This document shows positions 1-8,519 of a stretch of 51,416 bases of DNA, in pieces. This DNA is from Patescibacteria group bacterium (GTDB lineage Bacteria; Patescibacteriota; Patescibacteriia; PEXW01). The notes beneath the pieces were generated by a model. That model ran no database searches and had not been told where the DNA came from. It saw only the letters and a program-made list of their open reading frames with translations. Position numbers and translations under genes: made by a program. The stretch spans positions 1 to 51,416 of the forward strand of contig JBBTRU010000001.1 in NCBI GenBank assembly GCA_038065015.1, in the 5' to 3' direction. Every line of letters starts with the position of its first letter. The first letter of the stretch is position 1.

Positions 1-896
1 ATTGCGTAAATCATATCCGCGGGTACTTGGCTGTTCTGCAAACTCGTTATCAGGCTGCCGTACTGGGTGCGAACCCCGGTGGTACCATCCAGCCAGTCAC
101 GCGTGAGTGTAGCCGCACCAATGGCTGCGCCCCGCGCCCCATCTGAAACTTCACCTTCGGCAAAGACTTGCTCGATAGGTTTCACCGGCTTGAGCGTGAG
201 ACTGGTGAACTTGACCAACTTGGGGCTAATGGTAAGCAGCAACAGGTAGGCCGACAACGCCAGGATGACCCCGATAATAGCCGAGCTGATGGTCTCTTTT
301 GCTTCCTGAATTTTCCCGCGGTCGCCAGCGGCCAGCACCCAGCGCAGGCCGCCATACATTGTCATGACTGTTGCCAAAATGCCAATAGCACCCACCATGA
401 ACACGTAGAGCGCGGCAATGTACTCGCCCAGGGTATTGCCGGTAATAATAATGCTCTCGCCGGCAATAAACTTTGAGCCTGGCAACGTGAGCTGGGGTTT
501 AAACGCAATACCCACTGGAGCCGGTTGGGCCTGCTCGCTGCGGCAAGAGAGCGCCGTGCACGGCAATGTCGAAGGGCTGCTAAAGGCCGTGGTGCACGCT
601 CCCGAAGCCGTCGGTTGCTCACACATGCCGTTGAAGAGCACACAGCACTGCGTGGTTGCGGCAGCCACGGTCGGGCAAGTACAACTCGTCGCATAAACTC
701 CTGCATAACTGGCGCAAATTTTATCCTGCGTCCAGCCCCCGGGTGGCGGCTCGCCCGCCGGGGCTATGAGCTCCGCATCGGTAAAGCACTTGTTGGGTGT
801 GGTAACCGAAATGTTGCAGCAGCCCGCCTCTGCACGCAACGGCACCAGGATGCTTGTCAAAAACAGCAGACTGAGCAGGACAGATCGAATCTTCAC
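1..896 (-). CDS. Cys-rich secreted protein with VirB2/TrbC-like pilin membrane hairpin (start in window, 3' end beyond left edge)
   Basis: Absent from the ORF track because there is no stop in the window. My reverse-strand translation from GTG (896-894) gives VKIRSVLLSLLFLTSILVPLRAEA (signal peptide), then GCCNISVTTPNKC..TQCCVLFNGMCEQ..LPCTALSC. It continues GEYIAALYVFMVGAIGILATVMTMYGGLRWVLAAGDRGKIQEAKETISSAIIGVILALSAYLLLLTISPKLV. That stretch is colinear with GAYIGGLYKFFSGAIGIIATVMIFYGGIKWVAAAGNPSKIKEAKEAIFSALIAVVISLGSYMLLYVINPNLV of ORF 2805..4118. The frame stays open to position 1. The GTG overlaps the upstream stop (GTGA). Confidence 0.5.
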   Translation of the reverse strand, partial: MKIRSVLLSLLFLTSILVPLRAEAGCCNISVTTPNKCFTDAELIAPAGEPPPGGWTQDKICASYAGVYATSCTCPTVAAATTQCCVLFNGMCEQPTASGACTTAFSSPSTLPCTALSCRSEQAQPAPVGIAFKPQLTLPGSKFIAGESIIITGNTLGEYIAALYVFMVGAIGILATVMTMYGGLRWVLAAGDRGKIQEAKETISSAIIGVILALSAYLLLLTISPKLVKFTSLTLKPVKPIEQVFAEGEVSDGARGAAIGAATLTRDWLDGTTGVRTQYGSLITSLQNSQVPADMIYA

Positions 897-1507
897 AAGT
901 GCTTTTGGATTACCTGCCGAAGGTCAGCATCTTCGACTAACCCAGTAATCTGCTCGTCATTGACGAACATGGTCGGCACTTCTTGAATGCCAAGTCGTTT
1001 GCCTTCCGCAATAGCCGCATTCACGCGAGCCACGGCTTGGCCGCTCTCCAGGCACTGCTGTAGCTGCGCGGCATTGGTCCCGCTCTGCTGCGCCAGCACT
1101 TCTAGCGAGATGGTTGCAAGCTCGGTCTGGTGGTCGAAAAGCGTATCATGCATTTGCCAGAATTCGCCCTGGTCTTGGGCACAGCGGGCAATCTGCGAAG
1201 CGCGGTTGCTATTGGGGTGCAAGGGTAACGGAAAATCTTTAAACACCAAACGCACGTCATTTTGGTACGCACCAAGTGCAGACTTCAAAATTTGCACTTC
1301 GGCCTTGCAGAACTCGCACTCGAAATCGGTAAACACCACCAGCGTTACCTTACCGCGTTCGGCCCCAATTTTTGGGTCGGTGCTCTCCACCCGCGGCCGC
1401 ACCGCAGCAGTGCTGCCCGCGCCAAGCAGCGAGAGGCCATAGGTAACTATAATAAGCACGGCAAAACCGCCGATGATCGACAGAAGGACATTCTCGTGCC
1501 GCGTCAT
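893..1507 (-). CDS. DsbA-family thiol:disulfide oxidoreductase, membrane anchored
   Basis: 204 aa. N-terminal TM (LLSIIGGFAVLIIVTYGL). Thioredoxin-fold CxxC site in VVFTDFECEFCKAEV. Typical DsbA-like remainder (FKDFPLPLHPNS..ARCAQDQGEFWQMHD..VPTMFVN). Confidence 0.8.
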   Translation of the reverse strand: MTRHENVLLSIIGGFAVLIIVTYGLSLLGAGSTAAVRPRVESTDPKIGAERGKVTLVVFTDFECEFCKAEVQILKSALGAYQNDVRLVFKDFPLPLHPNSNRASQIARCAQDQGEFWQMHDTLFDHQTELATISLEVLAQQSGTNAAQLQQCLESGQAVARVNAAIAEGKRLGIQEVPTMFVNDEQITGLVEDADLRQVIQKHL

Positions 1508-1510
1508 AGG

Positions 1511-2770
1511 CTAGCGAATTTTCAGCGTCAGCACGCGGCCGGTGGGTGCGTCGGTGAAGTAGAGCGTCCGCTCGTCGGGCGAGAGGGTCATGTTGACGGC
1601 CGAGAAACGCCGGCTACCGTCGGTGCCCACCGGGTTGGCCAGCAAGGTTTTCGAACCTGTCGTCAGGTCCACCACATAGAAGCTATCGGGCGCGCTGGCC
1701 GCCTGGTCGCGATAAATACCGCTGCCCGAAGGGAGCGTACCGGCGTCGGGCACGGCACAGTAGAGTGTTGTACCGGCTTTGCTAAACGTGCATTTATCCG
1801 ACCACGTGGCCAAATCGAGCGGCCGGTTGTTAGCGCCTATGGTATCGCCGTTGGCGTCTACTATGTGCAAGCTAGGGTTGTAGCTAGAGCCGGCGGAGTA
1901 CGTGCTATACAGCATGCGCTGGCCGTCAGGCGACCACGACCCCTCGAACCCACGGCCGTCGGTGACCGCGGACTTAAAGTTCTCGCCGTTCTTGCCCACG
2001 AAGAATACTTCTTGCTTCGAGCCATCCAACCCCGGGCTGTACGTTGCCACCACCTGGTTGTTCGGCGACCACTGTACTGCAACCTTGCTGCCGTTCTCGC
2101 CCAACGGCTCGATAGGGGTAATATTCGTGCCGTCCGGGCTACTCACCACCAAAAACCGGTCGGCAACATTCGTGGCATTGTACTTAAACGCAATTTGCCC
2201 GCCGGCCGGGGCAAAGCTAAAGTCGTCGCCTTGCTTGGGCAGGGTGGCTTGCTTCTTGGTGTCGAAGTTGTAGTAGACCTTGGAATCGTCCGGGAAGCTG
2301 ACAATGACTTCGTTCTTCTGGCCCGACCACACCACTTCTTCGGCCTCGGGAAACTTGACTGTGGAGAGCGGAACGACATTGCCATTAGCGTCGAGCTTGT
2401 AGAACTGGCCGGTGGCTTTGTCGTAGTAACGCAGGTTGCCGCTGCTGTCGATGACGATGTCGCTGGCATTGCCAGAGACGAGCGTACCCACAGTCGTATC
2501 GCCGCCGCCCGCAACGCTGCTGGGCGCGGTGTTCGTCACCCCTGTGCCTCGATTGATATTCGAAGCATTTACGTTTGGCAGAACGCCATTAACATTCGTG
2601 GCTCGGTTTACATTGCCATTCAGGTCGGGTAGCGAGCCATTGAGATTGCCGTTCTGGTTGCCGTTAACGTTACCCGCTGGGCTGCTGCGGAAGAACGAAA
2701 TGTACAGCAAAAAGCCCAGGACAAGGACGCCGAGGACGAATGCAACAATGAGAATTATGCGACGGTTCAT
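1511..2770 (-). CDS. Membrane-anchored TolB-like beta-propeller (PD40/WD40-like repeats)
   Basis: 419 aa. N-terminal TM (IILIVAFVLGVLVLGFLLYISFF) followed by an Asn-rich linker (NVNGNQNGNLNG..NVNASNIN). Recurring PD40-type strands: VVSSPDGTNITPI, WSPNNQVVATYSP, WSPDGQRMLYSTYS, TLSPDERTLYFTD. Confidence 0.65.
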   Translation of the reverse strand: MNRRIILIVAFVLGVLVLGFLLYISFFRSSPAGNVNGNQNGNLNGSLPDLNGNVNRATNVNGVLPNVNASNINRGTGVTNTAPSSVAGGGDTTVGTLVSGNASDIVIDSSGNLRYYDKATGQFYKLDANGNVVPLSTVKFPEAEEVVWSGQKNEVIVSFPDDSKVYYNFDTKKQATLPKQGDDFSFAPAGGQIAFKYNATNVADRFLVVSSPDGTNITPIEPLGENGSKVAVQWSPNNQVVATYSPGLDGSKQEVFFVGKNGENFKSAVTDGRGFEGSWSPDGQRMLYSTYSAGSSYNPSLHIVDANGDTIGANNRPLDLATWSDKCTFSKAGTTLYCAVPDAGTLPSGSGIYRDQAASAPDSFYVVDLTTGSKTLLANPVGTDGSRRFSAVNMTLSPDERTLYFTDAPTGRVLTLKIR

Positions 2771-2804
2771 GCCTTATATTCTACACGATTTTCTATATCT
2801 CTGC

Positions 2805-4118
2805 CTATTCTGAAACGTGGCACGTCAGGTCTACAGCAGTTGCGGTTGTTGCGTTTGCTGTTGCTTTCATGCAGCAAATACCACGAACTTGTAAGGCCTG
2901 AAATAATCCTTTTTCTTTTCGCCACTCGCACTGGGAGGTAATAATTTTTCCAGTTGATGCAAGCGTCCCATCGTAAATTTCTTCAGCCGCGGATGCATCG
3001 TAACAACTGCCCGATACGCCGGTAAATTGAATGGATGGATTTACCTTTGTTCCAAAATTAATCGAACCAGTAGCATCTGGTTCTTGGGCCCGACGGCACG
3101 CCTCGCCGCCAACACGCACCGGAAAGTCCGATGGACAAGTGAGTACTGGCCAAGATTTGCAATAGTCAGTCACGGTCACATCGCCACATTCAGTTAAACC
3201 ACCAGCGGCATACCAGCTGCACTGGCGAGAACCCGGTTGGCTCAAAGGTGCACAGAGTACATCATGACGCCCCAAGCCGACATTTGCCAACGTATCATCC
3301 ACCTGCTCGCACGCCAAAATTTTATCCATGCAGCCGTATTTTGTGCCATTCACAGGATCAGAACGCAAGAATGTTTGCCCACTCAGTCCATCACGAAAAT
3401 CACTCCCAAGGCCGCAAGTCTTGGTCGTATCTGCACATACCGTTCCACGACACGTGGCCGCACCCGTGCTCCCAGCGGTGTACGGGTATTCTGTTCCGCA
3501 AAGCGGTTGCGTGTCACCACCAAGTTCTATTGGATACCCGCACGCTCCTGCGCCAGATCCGCAATCAGCATCTAACGTGCACTTCGTGCCGGCTTTCGCA
3601 CCGCTCAAGCACGTCCGCGATGTCGGACAGGTTGCAAAACGCTGTTCAATCGGTTTTACCACAGTCAATGACGGCGGACGAAGGTTAACCAGATTGGGGT
3701 TGATGACGTACAGCAACATGTACGACCCCAGCGAAATGACCACCGCGATGAGCGCGGAAAAAATTGCTTCTTTGGCCTCTTTAATTTTGCTGGGGTTGCC
3801 GGCCGCGGCCACCCACTTAATGCCCCCGTAAAAAATCATGACCGTGGCAATAATGCCAATGGCCCCGGAGAAAAATTTATACAGACCGCCAATGTACGCG
3901 CCCATGTCCTGAATGTAGTCGCGTGTTGCACCGGCACTATCGGTGCAGGTCGTGGTGACGCCGGGAATAGGCACGGCAACGCTAATCCACTTTTGCTCAA
4001 TATCGCTCAATACCACCCCGGTGGGGAGTTTGGAACACGTGAACGCAGCCTGGGTAGACCCGGCGGCGAAAAGGCCGATGAGGAGTATGAGTATGAAAAG
4101 TGTTCGTCGCATAGGCAT
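2805..4118 (-). CDS. VirB2/TrbC-like pilin-domain protein with ~270 aa Cys-rich C-terminal extension
   Basis: 437 aa. Signal peptide (LFILILLIGLFAAGSTQA). Two hydrophobic helices flank the conserved WVAAAGNPSKIKEAKEAI loop, the layout of T4SS pilins. About 22 Cys follow in the C-terminal part (ATCPTSRTCLSG..KCTLDADCGSGAGACGY..). Paralogue of the partial ORF 1..896. Confidence 0.55.
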   Translation of the reverse strand: MPMRRTLFILILLIGLFAAGSTQAAFTCSKLPTGVVLSDIEQKWISVAVPIPGVTTTCTDSAGATRDYIQDMGAYIGGLYKFFSGAIGIIATVMIFYGGIKWVAAAGNPSKIKEAKEAIFSALIAVVISLGSYMLLYVINPNLVNLRPPSLTVVKPIEQRFATCPTSRTCLSGAKAGTKCTLDADCGSGAGACGYPIELGGDTQPLCGTEYPYTAGSTGAATCRGTVCADTTKTCGLGSDFRDGLSGQTFLRSDPVNGTKYGCMDKILACEQVDDTLANVGLGRHDVLCAPLSQPGSRQCSWYAAGGLTECGDVTVTDYCKSWPVLTCPSDFPVRVGGEACRRAQEPDATGSINFGTKVNPSIQFTGVSGSCYDASAAEEIYDGTLASTGKIITSQCEWRKEKGLFQALQVRGICCMKATANATTATAVDLTCHVSE

Positions 4119-4849
4119 TAAAAAGTGCCGCTCGCCCCTGCCCCACCGGAACTACCGCCGGAAAAAAGGTCCCAAACGGCTTTTAACGCACCACTGGAAA
4201 GATCGAGAAATACCTGTGATTGGGTAATCGGATCCGCGGTAATAATCCACACAATGAACATGAGGAAGAACACAATAATTGCCAGGATGGTGAGAATGAC
4301 GAATGCAGCGGCCAGGTGAGAGATGAACACGCCAATGCCGACCAGACCCAGGCTGTACTTTGGAAAAATGACTATACCTTTCATGCGCAGCGGCACGATT
4401 GCTGCCATGATGCGCATAAAAAAAATGCTTAGGAAGAGCCACGGCGAAACAATTATTTCTAAAGCGAGCGCATTGCCAATGAGCTCGGACTGAAAACTGT
4501 TCAAAACCCGGGTGTAGGCGGCATTCGCTTTGGCCAGGGCCTGGCCCGAGGCTACTGCTTGAGCCGCCTGCTTACGCATTTCACCAATGTGCCGCAACCG
4601 GGCAATTGGACCCGAGTCATTCTGGCCAGCCGCTGCCTGGGCTGGGCCGGCATCCTGCGATAATGCTGGCGCCCCGGCGGTCTGGAGCGAAGAGTTGCTA
4701 TTGATGCTATCTAAACTCGTGCCCAAGCCCGAGGCTTGCCGCCGGATGTACTCCCCTGCGTCGGGCTGCTGGGCTTGCCGCTGCGCAAAAGTATCCGCGT
4801 AGAGTGCGCGCTGCTGCTGGGCTTCGAGGGTGGAGGCCGAATCGGCCAT
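4118..4849 (-). CDS. Polytopic membrane protein, function unknown (T4SS-like operon member)
   Basis: 243 aa. Hydrophilic Q/A-rich N-terminal ~130 aa, then 3-4 TM helices (IVSPWLFLSIFFMRIMAAIV, LGLVGIGVFISHLAAAFVILTILAIIVFFLMFIVWII). Gly/Ser tail. Its stop region overlaps the start of the next gene. Confidence 0.55.
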   Translation of the reverse strand: MADSASTLEAQQQRALYADTFAQRQAQQPDAGEYIRRQASGLGTSLDSINSNSSLQTAGAPALSQDAGPAQAAAGQNDSGPIARLRHIGEMRKQAAQAVASGQALAKANAAYTRVLNSFQSELIGNALALEIIVSPWLFLSIFFMRIMAAIVPLRMKGIVIFPKYSLGLVGIGVFISHLAAAFVILTILAIIVFFLMFIVWIITADPITQSQVFLDLSSGALKAVWDLFSGGSSGGAGASGTF

Positions 4850-4857
4850 AGGTGTGT

Positions 4858-5457
4858 TTACTGCTTAGCCCCCCAGGCCAAACGCCAAACTTTCCACGCC
4901 CCGTCCAGGCGCTGGAAGCTTAGGGTAATATCCTGGAAGTACGTGGTGGATTCCGTGCTGCTGCCCGACGTTTCGGTGCGCTGCAGAGTCACGCGCACTT
5001 CGGCCGTGCCGTCGTTTTCATCAAACGCCTCGACGTTAACAATCCGCGGTTCCGACGTAAAACCGGTGTACAGGGAGGTGTCGGCACGCTTGGCCTGCTC
5101 TACGCCTACGAACGCCTCCTGCTGGGCCTTAAGGGCCGGGGCCATGAGCGGGTACAAGCTGGTAATATTCTCAAAGCTGTTCTGGTTCGAGAAGCTGCCG
5201 TAAATGCTGGCAAAGCTCCGCGCCGTGCTCTCCACAATTGCCCGGGCCGTCAGGGCGCTGCCGTTAACCGCGGTGTTGCTGTTGCCGGCCTGATTGGTGT
5301 TGAGCACAACGGTGTTCACGTTGGGCAGGTTGCCGTTGGTGTTGCTGGCATTCGTGTTCGAATTGGCATCGCGGCGCTGCAGGAAGAAAAACACCCCCAG
5401 CGCCAGCAAGGCGAGGAGCAGAGCACCGGCAATAATGAGGAGGATGCGTCGGGACAT
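4858..5457 (-). CDS. Bitopic membrane protein, candidate VirB8 analogue (N-terminal TM + small alpha/beta domain)
   Basis: 199 aa. TM (ILLIIAGALLLALLALGVFFFL), Asn-rich linker, then ~130 aa of helices followed by strands (AEVRVTLQRTE..YFQDITLSFQRLDGAWKVWRL). This is compatible with an NTF2-like fold. It lies directly downstream of VirB4. The functional call rests on architecture only. Confidence 0.4.
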   Translation of the reverse strand: MSRRILLIIAGALLLALLALGVFFFLQRRDANSNTNASNTNGNLPNVNTVVLNTNQAGNSNTAVNGSALTARAIVESTARSFASIYGSFSNQNSFENITSLYPLMAPALKAQQEAFVGVEQAKRADTSLYTGFTSEPRIVNVEAFDENDGTAEVRVTLQRTETSGSSTESTTYFQDITLSFQRLDGAWKVWRLAWGAKQ

Positions 5458-5469
5458 AGGGCGGTGGGG

Positions 5470-7368
5470 TTAGGAGCCGGGTTGGCTGGTCTCGTTGAAT
5501 TCTTTCTTGGCGGCTTCAATTTCCAGCAGCTGGCGCGGGTCCGAGGTAATAATTTGATCTTCGGTGTACGAAGCTACAACTTTAATGGCCGCGTGCTTGG
5601 GCCCGGCAAAGAAAATGCCTTCACCCACCGCGGCTTCGAGCAGCAGGTATTTCTCCCCTTGCGTGAGCAAAAAGGTCTTGGCCACCATGTCCACCCCGGC
5701 CGGCGATTGCTTCATAAGCAGCTGCAAGGCGGAGTTCGTAACAATGGCCTGGCCGTACGGGCTGCGCAAAAAGTCGTTCACATCCTGCGTGATGGTGGTA
5801 ACCCCCAGGTAGTACTTGCGGCAGCGTTTGACCAGGGCGTAAATAAACCGCGCCGAGTCTTCGTTCTGCATCAGCCACCAGGCTTCGTCAATTACCAGGA
5901 TGCGCTTCTTGAGGCTGGAGCGCACCACATTCCAGATGTACGAAACAATGATAGAAATGCCAATGGGTCGCAGCTCGTCTTCCAGATCGCGGACCGAGAA
6001 CGTGACGAGCTGGTTGGTGAGCTCGATATTCGTGGGGCTATTGAAGAGCCCGGCAAACGTGCCTTCGGTGTACTTCTTCAGGCGCTCCACAATCCCTTCC
6101 GCCCCCACCATGCCGGCCAGTACCTCTTGGAAATCCGCCATCAGCGGCGGCTCCACTTTGGTCAAATCGCTCTCGGCGGTTATGTCTTTCTTGTTGTAGG
6201 TTTCAATAAGTCCGCGGTCGATAATGGAATCTTCTTCTGGAGAGAGCGCGCCCAGCATAAGGCGCAGCATGCTCTTAAGCGTGATAACCGCAGCGCGAAT
6301 AATGTCGGCCGGCTTCTCGGCGCCGCCCACGGGCCGCGGCAAGTCGAAGGGGTTTATCTTGGAATCCGAATTGAGCGAGATGTTAATGTACGTCCCGCCC
6401 ACGGCATCCGAGAGGTACTTGTACTCGCGTTCGGGGTCGATGACGATAACATCCGTACCCACCATGAGCGAGCGCAAGATTTCGAGCTTTACCGCGTAGC
6501 TCTTGCCCGCGCCCGACGTGGCGAAGACCACGAAGTTAGCATTCTGCAAGCTAAACCGGTCAAAGAGAATGAGCGAGTTGTTGTGCCGGTTAATGCCGTA
6601 GAGAATGCCGTTGTCCGAAGACACATCCGAAGAAATGAACGGGAAGCTGCTGGCGGCGGGCGAGGAATTCATGTTAAAGCTCACCTGGATTTCATCCTTG
6701 CCAATGGGCAGGGTGGAGTTGAACCCCTGCTCGGCCTGGTAGAGCACGCGCTTGCTAAACACCAGCTTCTGGCCGAACATGGCCTCGACCTTGTCCGAGA
6801 GCTTGTCCAGCTGGTCTTTGGCGTCGGCGTACAGGGTAACGTACAAGGCCACCTGGAAGAATTTCTCCGTCCCTTGCGTCAGGTTATCGCGCAGTTGCTC
6901 GATGTCTCGCAGCGCAGTTTCTCGAATGGGATCGCGCGGGGCGCCCTTCTCGGCATCAGAGAGAATTTGCGCTTCGAGTTGGCCGACCTTGTTGCGGAGT
7001 TGCTTGAGCACGACTTCGGACCCGACCGGGTAGAAGAACATGGCCACATCCAAAGGCACGTTGAGGTTGATGATGGGCGCAAACCAGCCCACGGCAATGT
7101 AGCGCGGGTAGGTAACCACGAACATGGTGCGCGCCAGCTTGCCGCCAATTTCCACTTCCTTGGGCGAAATTTTAAACGAGGCGGGCGCAATAAAGTCCCG
7201 CACCGAAACCACGCCGCGGCGGTAGATGCGCTCGGCTTCGAGCAGCTCGCGCTTGCGTTGCAGCTCCATAGCGGCCGCTTGCTGCTGCTCTTCTTGCGAG
7301 AGCATTTGCATGGGCAACGGGGTTTCCGCTGGTTGCGACTTTGGCTTACGTGATAAGTTGATTGCCAT
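5470..7368 (-). CDS. virB4: VirB4/TrsE/ConE-family T4SS ATPase (central and ATPase domains)
   Basis: 632 aa. Gram-positive-type VirB4 middle region (VRDFIAPASFKISPKEVEIGGKLARTMFVVTYPRYIAVGWFAPII). Walker A FATSGAGKSY. Walker B RILVIDEAWWLM. C-terminal YYLGVTTITQDVNDF motif. Confidence 0.85.
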   Translation of the reverse strand: MAINLSRKPKSQPAETPLPMQMLSQEEQQQAAAMELQRKRELLEAERIYRRGVVSVRDFIAPASFKISPKEVEIGGKLARTMFVVTYPRYIAVGWFAPIINLNVPLDVAMFFYPVGSEVVLKQLRNKVGQLEAQILSDAEKGAPRDPIRETALRDIEQLRDNLTQGTEKFFQVALYVTLYADAKDQLDKLSDKVEAMFGQKLVFSKRVLYQAEQGFNSTLPIGKDEIQVSFNMNSSPAASSFPFISSDVSSDNGILYGINRHNNSLILFDRFSLQNANFVVFATSGAGKSYAVKLEILRSLMVGTDVIVIDPEREYKYLSDAVGGTYINISLNSDSKINPFDLPRPVGGAEKPADIIRAAVITLKSMLRLMLGALSPEEDSIIDRGLIETYNKKDITAESDLTKVEPPLMADFQEVLAGMVGAEGIVERLKKYTEGTFAGLFNSPTNIELTNQLVTFSVRDLEDELRPIGISIIVSYIWNVVRSSLKKRILVIDEAWWLMQNEDSARFIYALVKRCRKYYLGVTTITQDVNDFLRSPYGQAIVTNSALQLLMKQSPAGVDMVAKTFLLTQGEKYLLLEAAVGEGIFFAGPKHAAIKVVASYTEDQIITSDPRQLLEIEAAKKEFNETSQPGS

Positions 7369-8051: not shown

Positions 8052-8519
8052 CTACTGCTTGAGCGAACCAGCCACGATGTCGCCTTCTTCGGTGTACGCT
8101 CCGCCCGTATCGACGACCAGGGATAGTTCGGTAAGGCGGGAGGCAGTGAGTGCTTGCTTGGTGGCCATGGGTGCCTTGGGCTTGGCGGCCGGCGGGGCGG
8201 CAAAACGGTATTCGTATTCCGTGTCTTCCTTGTGCCAGAGGCGCAGCTTGGGCAGGCGCGTGGTTTGCAAAATTGAGAGAATAAAATAGTGGAACGGCCG
8301 GCCGTTAATTTTTACAAAGGCGAGCAGGAACATGAAGCCGGACCAGAAAATAAACAGGAAAATAAAAGTGAGCATGCTGAAAATTTTCAACTGCAAGAAA
8401 GACATAATGCCCCAGAACAAAATGAGGATGAACTGGCGAACCGTGAAGGGTCCTAAAATTTTATCCTCGACATCGATAAATTGTGGAACAACGAACTGCA
8501 TCATACGAATTGCAGGCAA
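8052..8519 (-). CDS. PrgI-family (VirB3-like) small membrane protein
   Basis: 155 aa. N-terminal VPQFIDVEDKILGPFTVRQFILILFWGIMSF followed by a second TM, the pattern of the PrgI family. It sits directly upstream of VirB4, as in Gram-positive T4SS. Confidence 0.6.
   Translation of the reverse strand: MPAIRMMQFVVPQFIDVEDKILGPFTVRQFILILFWGIMSFLQLKIFSMLTFIFLFIFWSGFMFLLAFVKINGRPFHYFILSILQTTRLPKLRLWHKEDTEYEYRFAAPPAAKPKAPMATKQALTASRLTELSLVVDTGGAYTEEGDIVAGSLKQ

Follow-up and report, generated by a model that had tools for sequence, protein, structure and literature searches.

Why does the operon of a type IV secretion system (T4SS) encode two pilin-domain proteins that carry large, cysteine-rich extensions? 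This question is raised by contig JBBTRU010000001.1 of a Patescibacteria group bacterium (GenBank assembly GCA_038065015.1), whose 51,416 nucleotides are referred to here as the window (contig C1). At issue are PILIN-A, the open reading frame (ORF) 3..896 (-) at the edge of the contig, and PILIN-B, the ORF 2805..4118 (-), in a locus that is recognised as a T4SS operon because a VirB4-type ATPase is encoded at 5470..7368. T4SSs are widespread in Patescibacteria, and in the single strain for which this has been examined, growth on the host depends on the system (PMC12102498, PMC10633639, PMC12857230). The analysis reported here favours the interpretation that both proteins are accessory subunits of the T4SS, in which a VirB2-like hairpin would insert into the membrane, dock to the apparatus and carry a payload outside the cytoplasm, and about half of our confidence is placed in it.

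A VirB2-like hairpin shared by two large proteins

Both proteins match PF18895 (T4SS_pilin) above its gathering score of 26.6 bits, PILIN-A with 42.6 and PILIN-B with 32.0 bits, so that the pilin nature of their cores, which the first-pass annotation of this DNA had read from the letters alone, is borne out by a T4SS pilin profile; scanned by themselves, the hairpins score 45.9 (PILIN-A) and 36.5 bits (PILIN-B). Neither protein matches the classical TrbC/VirB2 family PF04956 even at E ≤ 10, and sub-threshold matches to this family were obtained for a paralogue on contig C26 (E = 0.0035, 18 bits) and a plain pilin on contig C11 (E = 0.027). The two cores were already described as paralogous on account of a common motif, which reads RWVLAAGDRGKIQEAKETI in one pilin-domain ORF and KWVAAAGNPSKIKEAKEAI in the other, and together with the adjoining neck they are indeed 56% identical over 91 aa (BLASTP, E = 3e-30). 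This neck (ISPKLVKF..VKPIEQ in one and INPNLVNL..VKPIEQ in the other) is absent from the remaining pilin-domain paralogues of the genome, to which PILIN-A and PILIN-B are 27-36% identical, while they are each other's closest paralogues with 45-56% identity.

The premise that pilins consist of nothing but the hairpin holds for classical VirB2/TrbC proteins but not for Patescibacteria. In a sample of 61 genomes of this phylum, 60 of which contain PF18895 matches, about 19 of the best 150 matches lie in open frames of more than 250 aa and ten of these in frames of at least 445 aa, with the proviso that open frames overstate gene length slightly.

PILIN-A as a predicted lytic transglycosylase

The gene of PILIN-A was suspected from the outset to run off the contig, and its probable continuation is found at the start of contig C14. 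When an orthologue was searched against the window genome, its residues 114-290 were found on C1:3-524 and its residues 293-433 at the very start of C14, where C14:3-452 gives the sole SLT match of the genome (5.6e-14) and is followed by a RadA-like zinc ribbon. The SLT domain itself, which thus lies outside the window (C14:3-299), scores 51.4 bits against a cut-off of 21.3. The ends of C1 and C14 join in frame with a 1-nt overlap (...DMIYAIIAVESGGQP... versus ...DMIYAIIYVESGGRP... in the orthologue), the junction agrees residue for residue with orthologues, and the tail encoded in the window, ...QVPADMIYA, aligns with ...QVPEDMIYAIIYVESGG of protein P0021; an overlap of at least 15 nt between the end of C1 and any other contig was not found. 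The same arrangement is seen in orthologous operons on contigs with close PILIN-B homologues, where the last gene encodes a protein of 436-439 aa with PF18895 and PF01464 (SLT) and is followed by radA. Joined in this way, PILIN-A would be about 448 aa long and contain 22 Cys downstream of its signal peptide.

Both PF18895 and SLT are present in 25 of 27 database homologues, several of which are named 'lytic transglycosylase domain-containing protein' by NCBI. The catalytic E-S motif is intact on C14 (IIAVESGG), and the columns of the catalytic E and S are at least 90% conserved in alignment A2 and invariant in alignment A3. The family profile matches MltE/EmtA, MltC and Slt70; in the first of these, the ESGG motif falls on an identical stretch (ESGG). 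In the AlphaFold2 (AF2) model of the closest full-length orthologue (locus L026), the SLT domain is predicted with a local confidence (pLDDT) of 85-98 and the hairpin with 70-82, and a Foldseek search with this model retrieved MltE, MltC and MltF at E-values of 2e-4 to 4e-4 and a probability of 1.00. SLT is the only catalytic domain that Pfam scans found in PILIN-A and its orthologues, and it holds 10 more Cys. Since the gene probably continues on C14 with the SLT domain and 25 of 27 homologues have the fusion, PILIN-A is predicted to be a VirB1-type enzyme, a lytic transglycosylase borne on a pilin hairpin with extensions on both sides. The initial description of Cys-rich extensions on opposite sides of the two hairpins is thus incomplete and needs to be supplemented by the C-terminal SLT domain of PILIN-A (10 Cys) and a further N-terminal domain of about 45 aa in PILIN-B (2 Cys).

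The 12 Cys of the N-terminal module of PILIN-A, a count given correctly beforehand, all fall within residues 26-118, and 12 of 12 are kept in the closest relative (L026); in distant orthologues the module has diverged strongly and is still Cys-rich. It is poorly defined in the AF2 model of the L026 orthologue (pLDDT 50-78). The hairpin, 70% identical to that of orthologues, shows hydropathy segments at residues 155-184 and 201-228, matched by helices 158-190 and 195-225 in the orthologue model, whose linker of about 35 residues is disordered (pLDDT 33-43). The GTG start codon overlaps the stop codon of the preceding DsbA gene (GTGA).

Two other readings of the N-terminus were considered and dismissed. 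Database entries of 328-340 aa that appear to be 'short forms' without the N-module were rejected as such in the case of P0034 (332 aa), the sole entry checked against DNA: its start was mis-called at an internal Met, because the frame L029:5986-7407 runs upstream through the module and a signal peptide. P0033, P0035 and P0037 begin at the same point as P0034. Some database entries of the family may thus lack the N-terminal module because an internal Met was taken as their start. The A-G-C-C junction was not taken as a lipoprotein signal either, as the window protein (A-E-A-G-C-C) and most orthologues have an A-x-A site instead. A lipobox-like L-A-G-C is seen in some PILIN-A orthologues (L030, L035), and lipidation of a subset may occur.

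The cysteine-rich domain of PILIN-B

PILIN-B is complete within the window, and its ATG start overlaps the stop codon of the upstream transmembrane (TM) protein gene (TAATG). Its AF2 model has a mean pLDDT of 76.7 and contains a small N-terminal domain with strands at residues 24-26, 43-45, 54-58 and 63-67, followed by the hairpin helices 70-102 and 107-137. The invariant Cys residues of the N-domain, C26 and C56 in the numbering of P0001, occur in 14 of 14 sequences. Thirteen further homologues of 325-463 aa cover 56-100% of the query, and their alignment contains about 20 conserved Cys after the hairpin. As already counted in the first-pass annotation, the C-terminal 278 aa hold 22 Cys; with a genome mean of 0.87% Cys (832 long ORFs), only about 2.4 would be expected in this length, and PILIN-B is the most Cys-rich of all ORFs of at least 400 aa in the genome.

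For the C-terminal domain, no relative of known structure could be assigned. A Foldseek search with the PILIN-B model gave no PDB match below E = 0.6 and no BFVD match below E = 0.05, and the family profile retrieved nothing among PDB sequences at E ≤ 10. When the C-domain alone was compared with 1.84 billion representative sequences, nine proteins were found. Eight of these are 376-442 aa long; the domain begins near residue 160-176 in them, and PF18895 precedes it in all four members that are annotated by Pfam. The ninth, P0051 (2679 aa), shares only a short Cys motif with the domain. Among GTDB species genomes, the C-domain occurs in seven of the 11 genomes of its own family and in none of the 29 other families of the class, and its identity falls to 36-46% already within the genus. 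Along PILIN-B, pairwise identity within the family is highest in the hairpin (71%), amounts to 48% in the N-domain and decreases within the C-domain from 40% through 32% to 28% toward the C-terminus. Within the C-domain columns, Cys is 91% conserved and other residues 33%. On these sequence data, the domain appears to be a lineage-restricted, disulfide-stapled scaffold with a fast-changing surface.

Swapping of the extensions like cassettes, an idea put forward at the start, had to be abandoned for the PILIN-B family: a single lineage-restricted domain is found at a fixed place behind the hairpin in eight of the nine matches. The lower GC content that had been noticed in the C-terminal extension amounts to a modest dip of 46-49% in 2701-3150, compared with 52-57% across the remainder of the PILIN-B gene and 54% genome-wide, and it falls on the stretch in which the protein varies most. 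As a separate observation, the region of the PILIN-B domain with the motif C-T-x-D-A-D-C-G-x-G-A-G-x-C is matched by P0051 in seven stretches and may represent a reusable small disulfide module.

Topology and disulfide formation

According to hydropathy, both proteins consist of a signal peptide with an A-x-A site and, further on, two hydrophobic helices that flank a K/R-rich loop. By the positive-inside rule, such a basic loop is cytoplasmic and both flanks are outside. With the loop in the cytoplasm and both termini outside, all Cys-rich parts are predicted to be extracytoplasmic, as the proposal of the first-pass annotation required. This topology agrees with the even number of Cys that remains after removal of the signal peptide, 22 for the joined PILIN-A and 24 for PILIN-B, and with the adjacent gene for a DsbA-like thiol oxidase. 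DsbA is usually re-oxidised by VKOR in such bacteria, and a VKOR homologue is encoded elsewhere in the genome (C38:17375-17764, 84 bits).

Conservation of hairpin and operon

No other region of PILIN-A or PILIN-B is as well conserved as the hairpin, at 68-70% identity versus 27-35% in the Cys-rich ectodomains. For the single-pass neighbours in the operon (the DsbA-like, TolB-like and 199-aa proteins), the relation is reversed, the anchor being less conserved than the ectodomain in all three. This difference speaks in favour of a hairpin that does more than passively hold the protein in the membrane. It suggests, without proving them, specific interactions between the hairpin and either the T4SS platform or other pilins.

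The operon itself was followed through ten GTDB species loci collected with the PILIN-A profile, two of which (L028 and L033) are contig fragments. The complete order VirB4, 199-aa protein, TM protein, PILIN-B, TolB-like protein, DsbA and PILIN-A is present in eight of the ten, and the same order is also found in three contigs retrieved separately, one of them being the same record as L032. Both lines of evidence bear on the possibility that the hairpin is a generic two-helix anchor, PILIN-A being a housekeeping muramidase and PILIN-B a surface protein that merely neighbour T4SS genes. PILIN-B is indeed without functional annotation, and the SLT domain, for which no second match was found in this 94%-complete genome, could in addition contribute to wall turnover in general. 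Such an explanation is nevertheless difficult to reconcile with the fixed operon position and overlapping start and stop codons in at least eight species, with a hairpin that outconserves its payloads while the neighbours' anchors do the opposite, and with the membership of the hairpin in what is the phylum's T4SS pilin family (PMC12102498). It is considered very improbable.

Independently of these considerations, the operon displays an extreme rate contrast (5470-7368 versus 2805-4849; loci L026-L034), in which VirB4 retains 89-97% identity and the TM protein, PILIN-B and PILIN-A retain 29-57%. Many GTDB records with a Patescibacteria-type operon or pilins (L032, L034 and others) are titled 'uncultured Gammaproteobacteria bacterium' (third-party annotation, TPA), which is apparently a labelling mistake in the source.

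Possible roles within the secretion system

If PILIN-A and PILIN-B are accessory T4SS subunits, the following course of events can be envisaged. Both proteins, as judged from their sequences, would be exported by Sec and their signal peptides cleaved, leaving two long helices in the membrane, the short basic loop in the cytoplasm and both termini outside. The DsbA of the operon would oxidise the Cys-rich parts, and VKOR would recycle DsbA. PILIN-A would then act as the VirB1 equivalent: it would bear a family-1 (SLT) lytic transglycosylase on a flexible tether of some 35 residues, might dock to the T4SS via its hairpin and would open the peptidoglycan locally, at the site where the apparatus passes through the wall, while PILIN-B may be an exposed recognition or contact element with a fast-evolving surface. 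Of the two initial proposals, namely pilins with decorating head domains or anchor proteins that reuse the pilin hairpin, the latter fits best, with the correction that the main payload of PILIN-A is the predicted lytic transglycosylase encoded off the window.

Several points weigh against this interpretation. The role of PILIN-B is deduced only from exposure, disulfides and evolutionary rate, because the protein has no recognisable fold or motif. Furthermore, the C1-C14 join is deduced from a 1-nt overlap together with the orthologue alignment, and PF18895 is tied to canonical TrbC/VirB2 (PF04956) solely via the sub-threshold matches of two paralogues. Finally, as the genome encodes five plain pilins, a real pilus may exist, and PILIN-A and PILIN-B could belong to it.

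Such a membership could take the form of minor pilins, whose hairpin would co-polymerise with plain pilins and whose payloads would be carried on a T4SS pilus, either at the tip or thinly scattered over its length, to act on the host cell; the SLT domain would then cut the host wall and the variable Cys-rich head would bind the host surface. The hairpins of both proteins match the same PF18895 profile as the five plain pilins and are highly conserved, the neck and linker segments are flexible, and the exposed domains diverge rapidly next to a VirB4 with 89-97% identity in eight of the nine loci. In the solved VirB2-type pili, the F- and T-pilus, both termini point outward, so there could be steric room for terminal payloads if few subunits bear them. 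Epibiotic growth of Ca. Southlakia epibionticum, moreover, requires both the T4SS and its pilin array (PMC10633639). On the other hand, a pilus has never been seen for any Patescibacteria T4SS: essential pilin genes are described in the Cell 2023 study (PMC10633639) and the 2025 FEMS review (PMC12857230), and the pilus is treated there as only a possibility. PILIN-A and PILIN-B are also closest to each other and have a neck that the other pilin-domain paralogues (27-36% identity) lack. Taken together, we hold minor pilins to be unlikely, if by no means far-fetched.

Considerably less credible, and in our view barely worth entertaining, is the proposal that the two proteins are major subunits of decorated fibres with a head domain on every subunit. 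The hairpin does fit the pilin profile and long linkers could splay the heads outward, but a 30-kDa head on each subunit of a VirB2-type lattice would be hard to accommodate (own estimate based on published pilus geometry). Besides, the five plain pilins of about 115-120 aa are better suited to the role of major subunit, and each fusion is single-copy at a fixed operon position outside the pilin arrays.

A broader idea, which must be called rather improbable, is that the hairpin is a general loading module that mounts interchangeable payloads on a T4SS pilus, such as a wall-cutting enzyme, a hypervariable binding head and, in paralogues and relatives, Ig-like giants and M23 or C39-like peptidases, and that the filament 'armed' in this way recognises the host and breaches its wall. 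If true, it would give the essential and functionally unexplained T4SS of Patescibacteria a concrete mode of action.

Comparison with known systems

With the VirB2-like pilins described for Patescibacteria (Ca. Southlakia epibionticum SEML1_0006-0019, Wang et al. 2023, PMC10633639; Quinonero-Coronel et al. 2025, PMC12102498), PILIN-A and PILIN-B share PF18895 and the combination of a signal peptide and a two-helix hairpin, as well as the location beside virB4 in a chromosomal T4SS cluster of the MPF-FATA type with no relaxase nearby and with several paralogues per genome. In contrast to those pilins, which are small and occur in arrays, PILIN-A (about 448 aa) and PILIN-B (437 aa) have folded ectodomains and a neck and are single-copy; a small hairpin-only precursor of about 100-130 aa is represented in the genome by five paralogues but by neither of these two. 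In the survey of Patescibacteria T4SSs, VirB2-like pilins were counted by PF18895, and arrays of 2-11 pilins were reported (PMC12102498). Counts of 'VirB2 pilins' that are based on PF18895 take in multi-domain proteins. Pilin-domain fusions are not mentioned in the main text of PMC10633639 or PMC12102498, the searchable portion of the supplement text does not contain 'SLT', 'T4SS_pilin' or 'PF01464', and a literature search on PF18895/T4SS_pilin and on pilin plus lytic transglycosylase in the candidate phyla radiation (CPR) yielded no description of such fusions.

PILIN-A resembles the VirB1-class hydrolases (Agrobacterium VirB1; PrgK of pCF10, TraG of pIP501, TcpG of pCW3) in its SLT domain, Glu-Ser motif, T4SS operon and membrane-held state. 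The monoderm enzymes PrgK, TraG and TcpG, however, have an N-terminal single-pass anchor and usually an added CHAP, NlpC/P60 or M23 domain (PMC12102498 and general knowledge), whereas PILIN-A has an internal pilin hairpin as anchor behind a cleaved signal peptide, a Cys-rich module ahead of it and SLT alone; about 10 conserved Cys further set its SLT domain apart from the VirB1 class. According to the survey, most classes show little association of VirB1 homologues with virB4, and its authors conclude that a pilus may be built without VirB1 (PMC12102498). With its hairpin-borne lytic transglycosylase and its constant place in the operon, PILIN-A offers a tangible candidate for the VirB1-type hydrolase that surveys often report as missing near virB4.

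For PILIN-B, the pilus-tip adhesins VirB5/TraC of diderm T4SSs, exposed and variable components in contact with the target, may be a functional counterpart. VirB5 is soluble and helical and has no membrane hairpin, and no sequence or fold similarity between it and PILIN-B was detected in the PDB and Foldseek searches. With its disulfide-stapled, rapidly diverging head, PILIN-B may be regarded as a candidate host-contact element. If the two proteins were minor pilins, the minor pilins with large domains known from type IV pili and type II secretion (CofB/TcpB, GspK) could serve as a model, as they combine a polymerisation module with a bulky domain and occur once per filament, at the tip or the start of assembly. 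This would be an analogy without homology, since they have the unrelated type IV pilin fold and belong to another assembly machine.

Gene neighbourhood and further pilin-domain proteins

The window genome (0.93 Mb in 68 contigs, 94% complete, GC 54%) has its nearest relatives among metagenome-assembled genomes labelled Patescibacteria, Parcubacteria or Kerfeldbacteria. From position 1 to about 23 kb of the window, every gene lies on the minus strand. The run starts with genes for a giant protein of 3069 aa, followed by a 1263-aa protein, a 458-aa protein, a PrgI/VirB3-like protein, a 226-aa protein and VirB4, after which come the bitopic 199-aa protein, the polytopic 243-aa protein, PILIN-B, the TolB/PD40-like protein, the DsbA-like protein and PILIN-A (Table 1). 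No Pfam family was matched by the 226-aa protein upstream of VirB4, the orthologue of which on L011 bears a TraC-like annotation, or by the 243-aa membrane protein. The PD40 match of the TolB-like protein is weak (22.3 bits versus a cut-off of 20.9), and an Rfam scan of the window gave no match.

Table 1 Features of the T4SS operon in the window and identity of the encoded proteins in related loci
Feature	Position (strand)	Description	Identity to window
PILIN-A, partial gene	3..896 (-)	298 codons in window; signal peptide, Cys-rich N-module, hairpin, neck, flexible linker	37-57%
PILIN-A signal peptide	825..896 (-)	residues 1-24, ...VPLRAEA before GCC; hydrophobic stretch, A-x-A site	
PILIN-A N-terminal Cys-rich module	537..824 (-)	residues 25-120, 12 Cys	
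PILIN-A VirB2-like hairpin	213..431 (-)	residues 156-228; basic loop AAGDRGKIQEAKE; PF18895 match residues 154-219	
PILIN-A neck, linker and first SLT residues	3..212 (-)	neck ISPKLVKF..LKPVKPIEQ; stops four residues short of catalytic Glu	
PILIN-B	2805..4118 (-)	437 aa; signal peptide, small N-domain, hairpin, neck, 275-aa Cys-rich orphan domain	36-56%
PILIN-B signal peptide	4047..4118 (-)	residues 1-24, ...GSTQA before AFTC; A-x-A site conserved in alignment A1	
PILIN-B small N-terminal beta domain	3909..4046 (-)	residues 25-70; about 45 aa; two invariant Cys	
PILIN-B VirB2-like hairpin	3693..3908 (-)	residues 71-142; loop AAGNPSKIKEAKE; PF18895 match residues 76-130	
PILIN-B neck	3633..3692 (-)	INPNLVNLRPPSLTVVKPIEQ; common to PILIN-A; disordered, pLDDT <50 at residues 144-154	
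PILIN-B C-terminal disulfide-rich domain	2808..3632 (-)	22 Cys, mostly beta, pLDDT 80-90	
DsbA-like membrane-anchored thiol oxidase	893..1507 (-)	Thioredoxin_4 1.6e-28, DSBA 1e-16; translationally coupled to PILIN-A via GTGA; same position in related loci	44-80%
TolB/PD40-like beta-propeller protein	1511..2770 (-)	N-terminal anchor; between the two pilin-domain genes; position conserved	60-84% in 8/9 loci reaching position; 44% in L035
Polytopic membrane protein (TM protein)	4118..4849 (-)	243 aa; immediately upstream of PILIN-B, translationally coupled via TAATG; position conserved	29-38%
Bitopic 199-aa protein, possible VirB8 analogue	4858..5457 (-)	sub-threshold VirB8 match E=0.068 only; position conserved	
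VirB4-type ATPase	5470..7368 (-)	P-loop_TraG 1.2e-25, plus AAA_10 and DUF87	89-97% in 8/9 loci reaching it; 76% in L035
PrgI/VirB3-like gene	8052-8519	26.7 bits, slightly under 27-bit cut-off	

Nine PF18895 matches are found in the window genome, five of which are the plain pilins of about 115-120 aa. Three tandem pilin-domain genes at C11:9750-11450 (L071) adjoin genes for a 509-aa solute-binding protein and a DUF2079 membrane protein; one of the three encodes a 288-aa protein with extensions on both sides of the hairpin and 6 Cys. On the minus strand of C26:3-3614 (L070), a protein of at least 1204 aa that runs off the contig end has a PF18895 hairpin at its N-terminus and Big_5 Ig-like domains behind it, and 29 Cys are counted in its 1216-aa open frame. 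In relatives, the same hairpin is fused to Peptidase_M23 or a C39-like peptidase. Distant from the T4SS operon, C33:8007-8972 (in an 846-aa frame) and C7:48358-48759 (in a 566-aa frame) match T4SS-DNA_transf and TrwB_AAD_bind above the cut-off and are candidates for type IV coupling proteins or FtsK-like ATPases.

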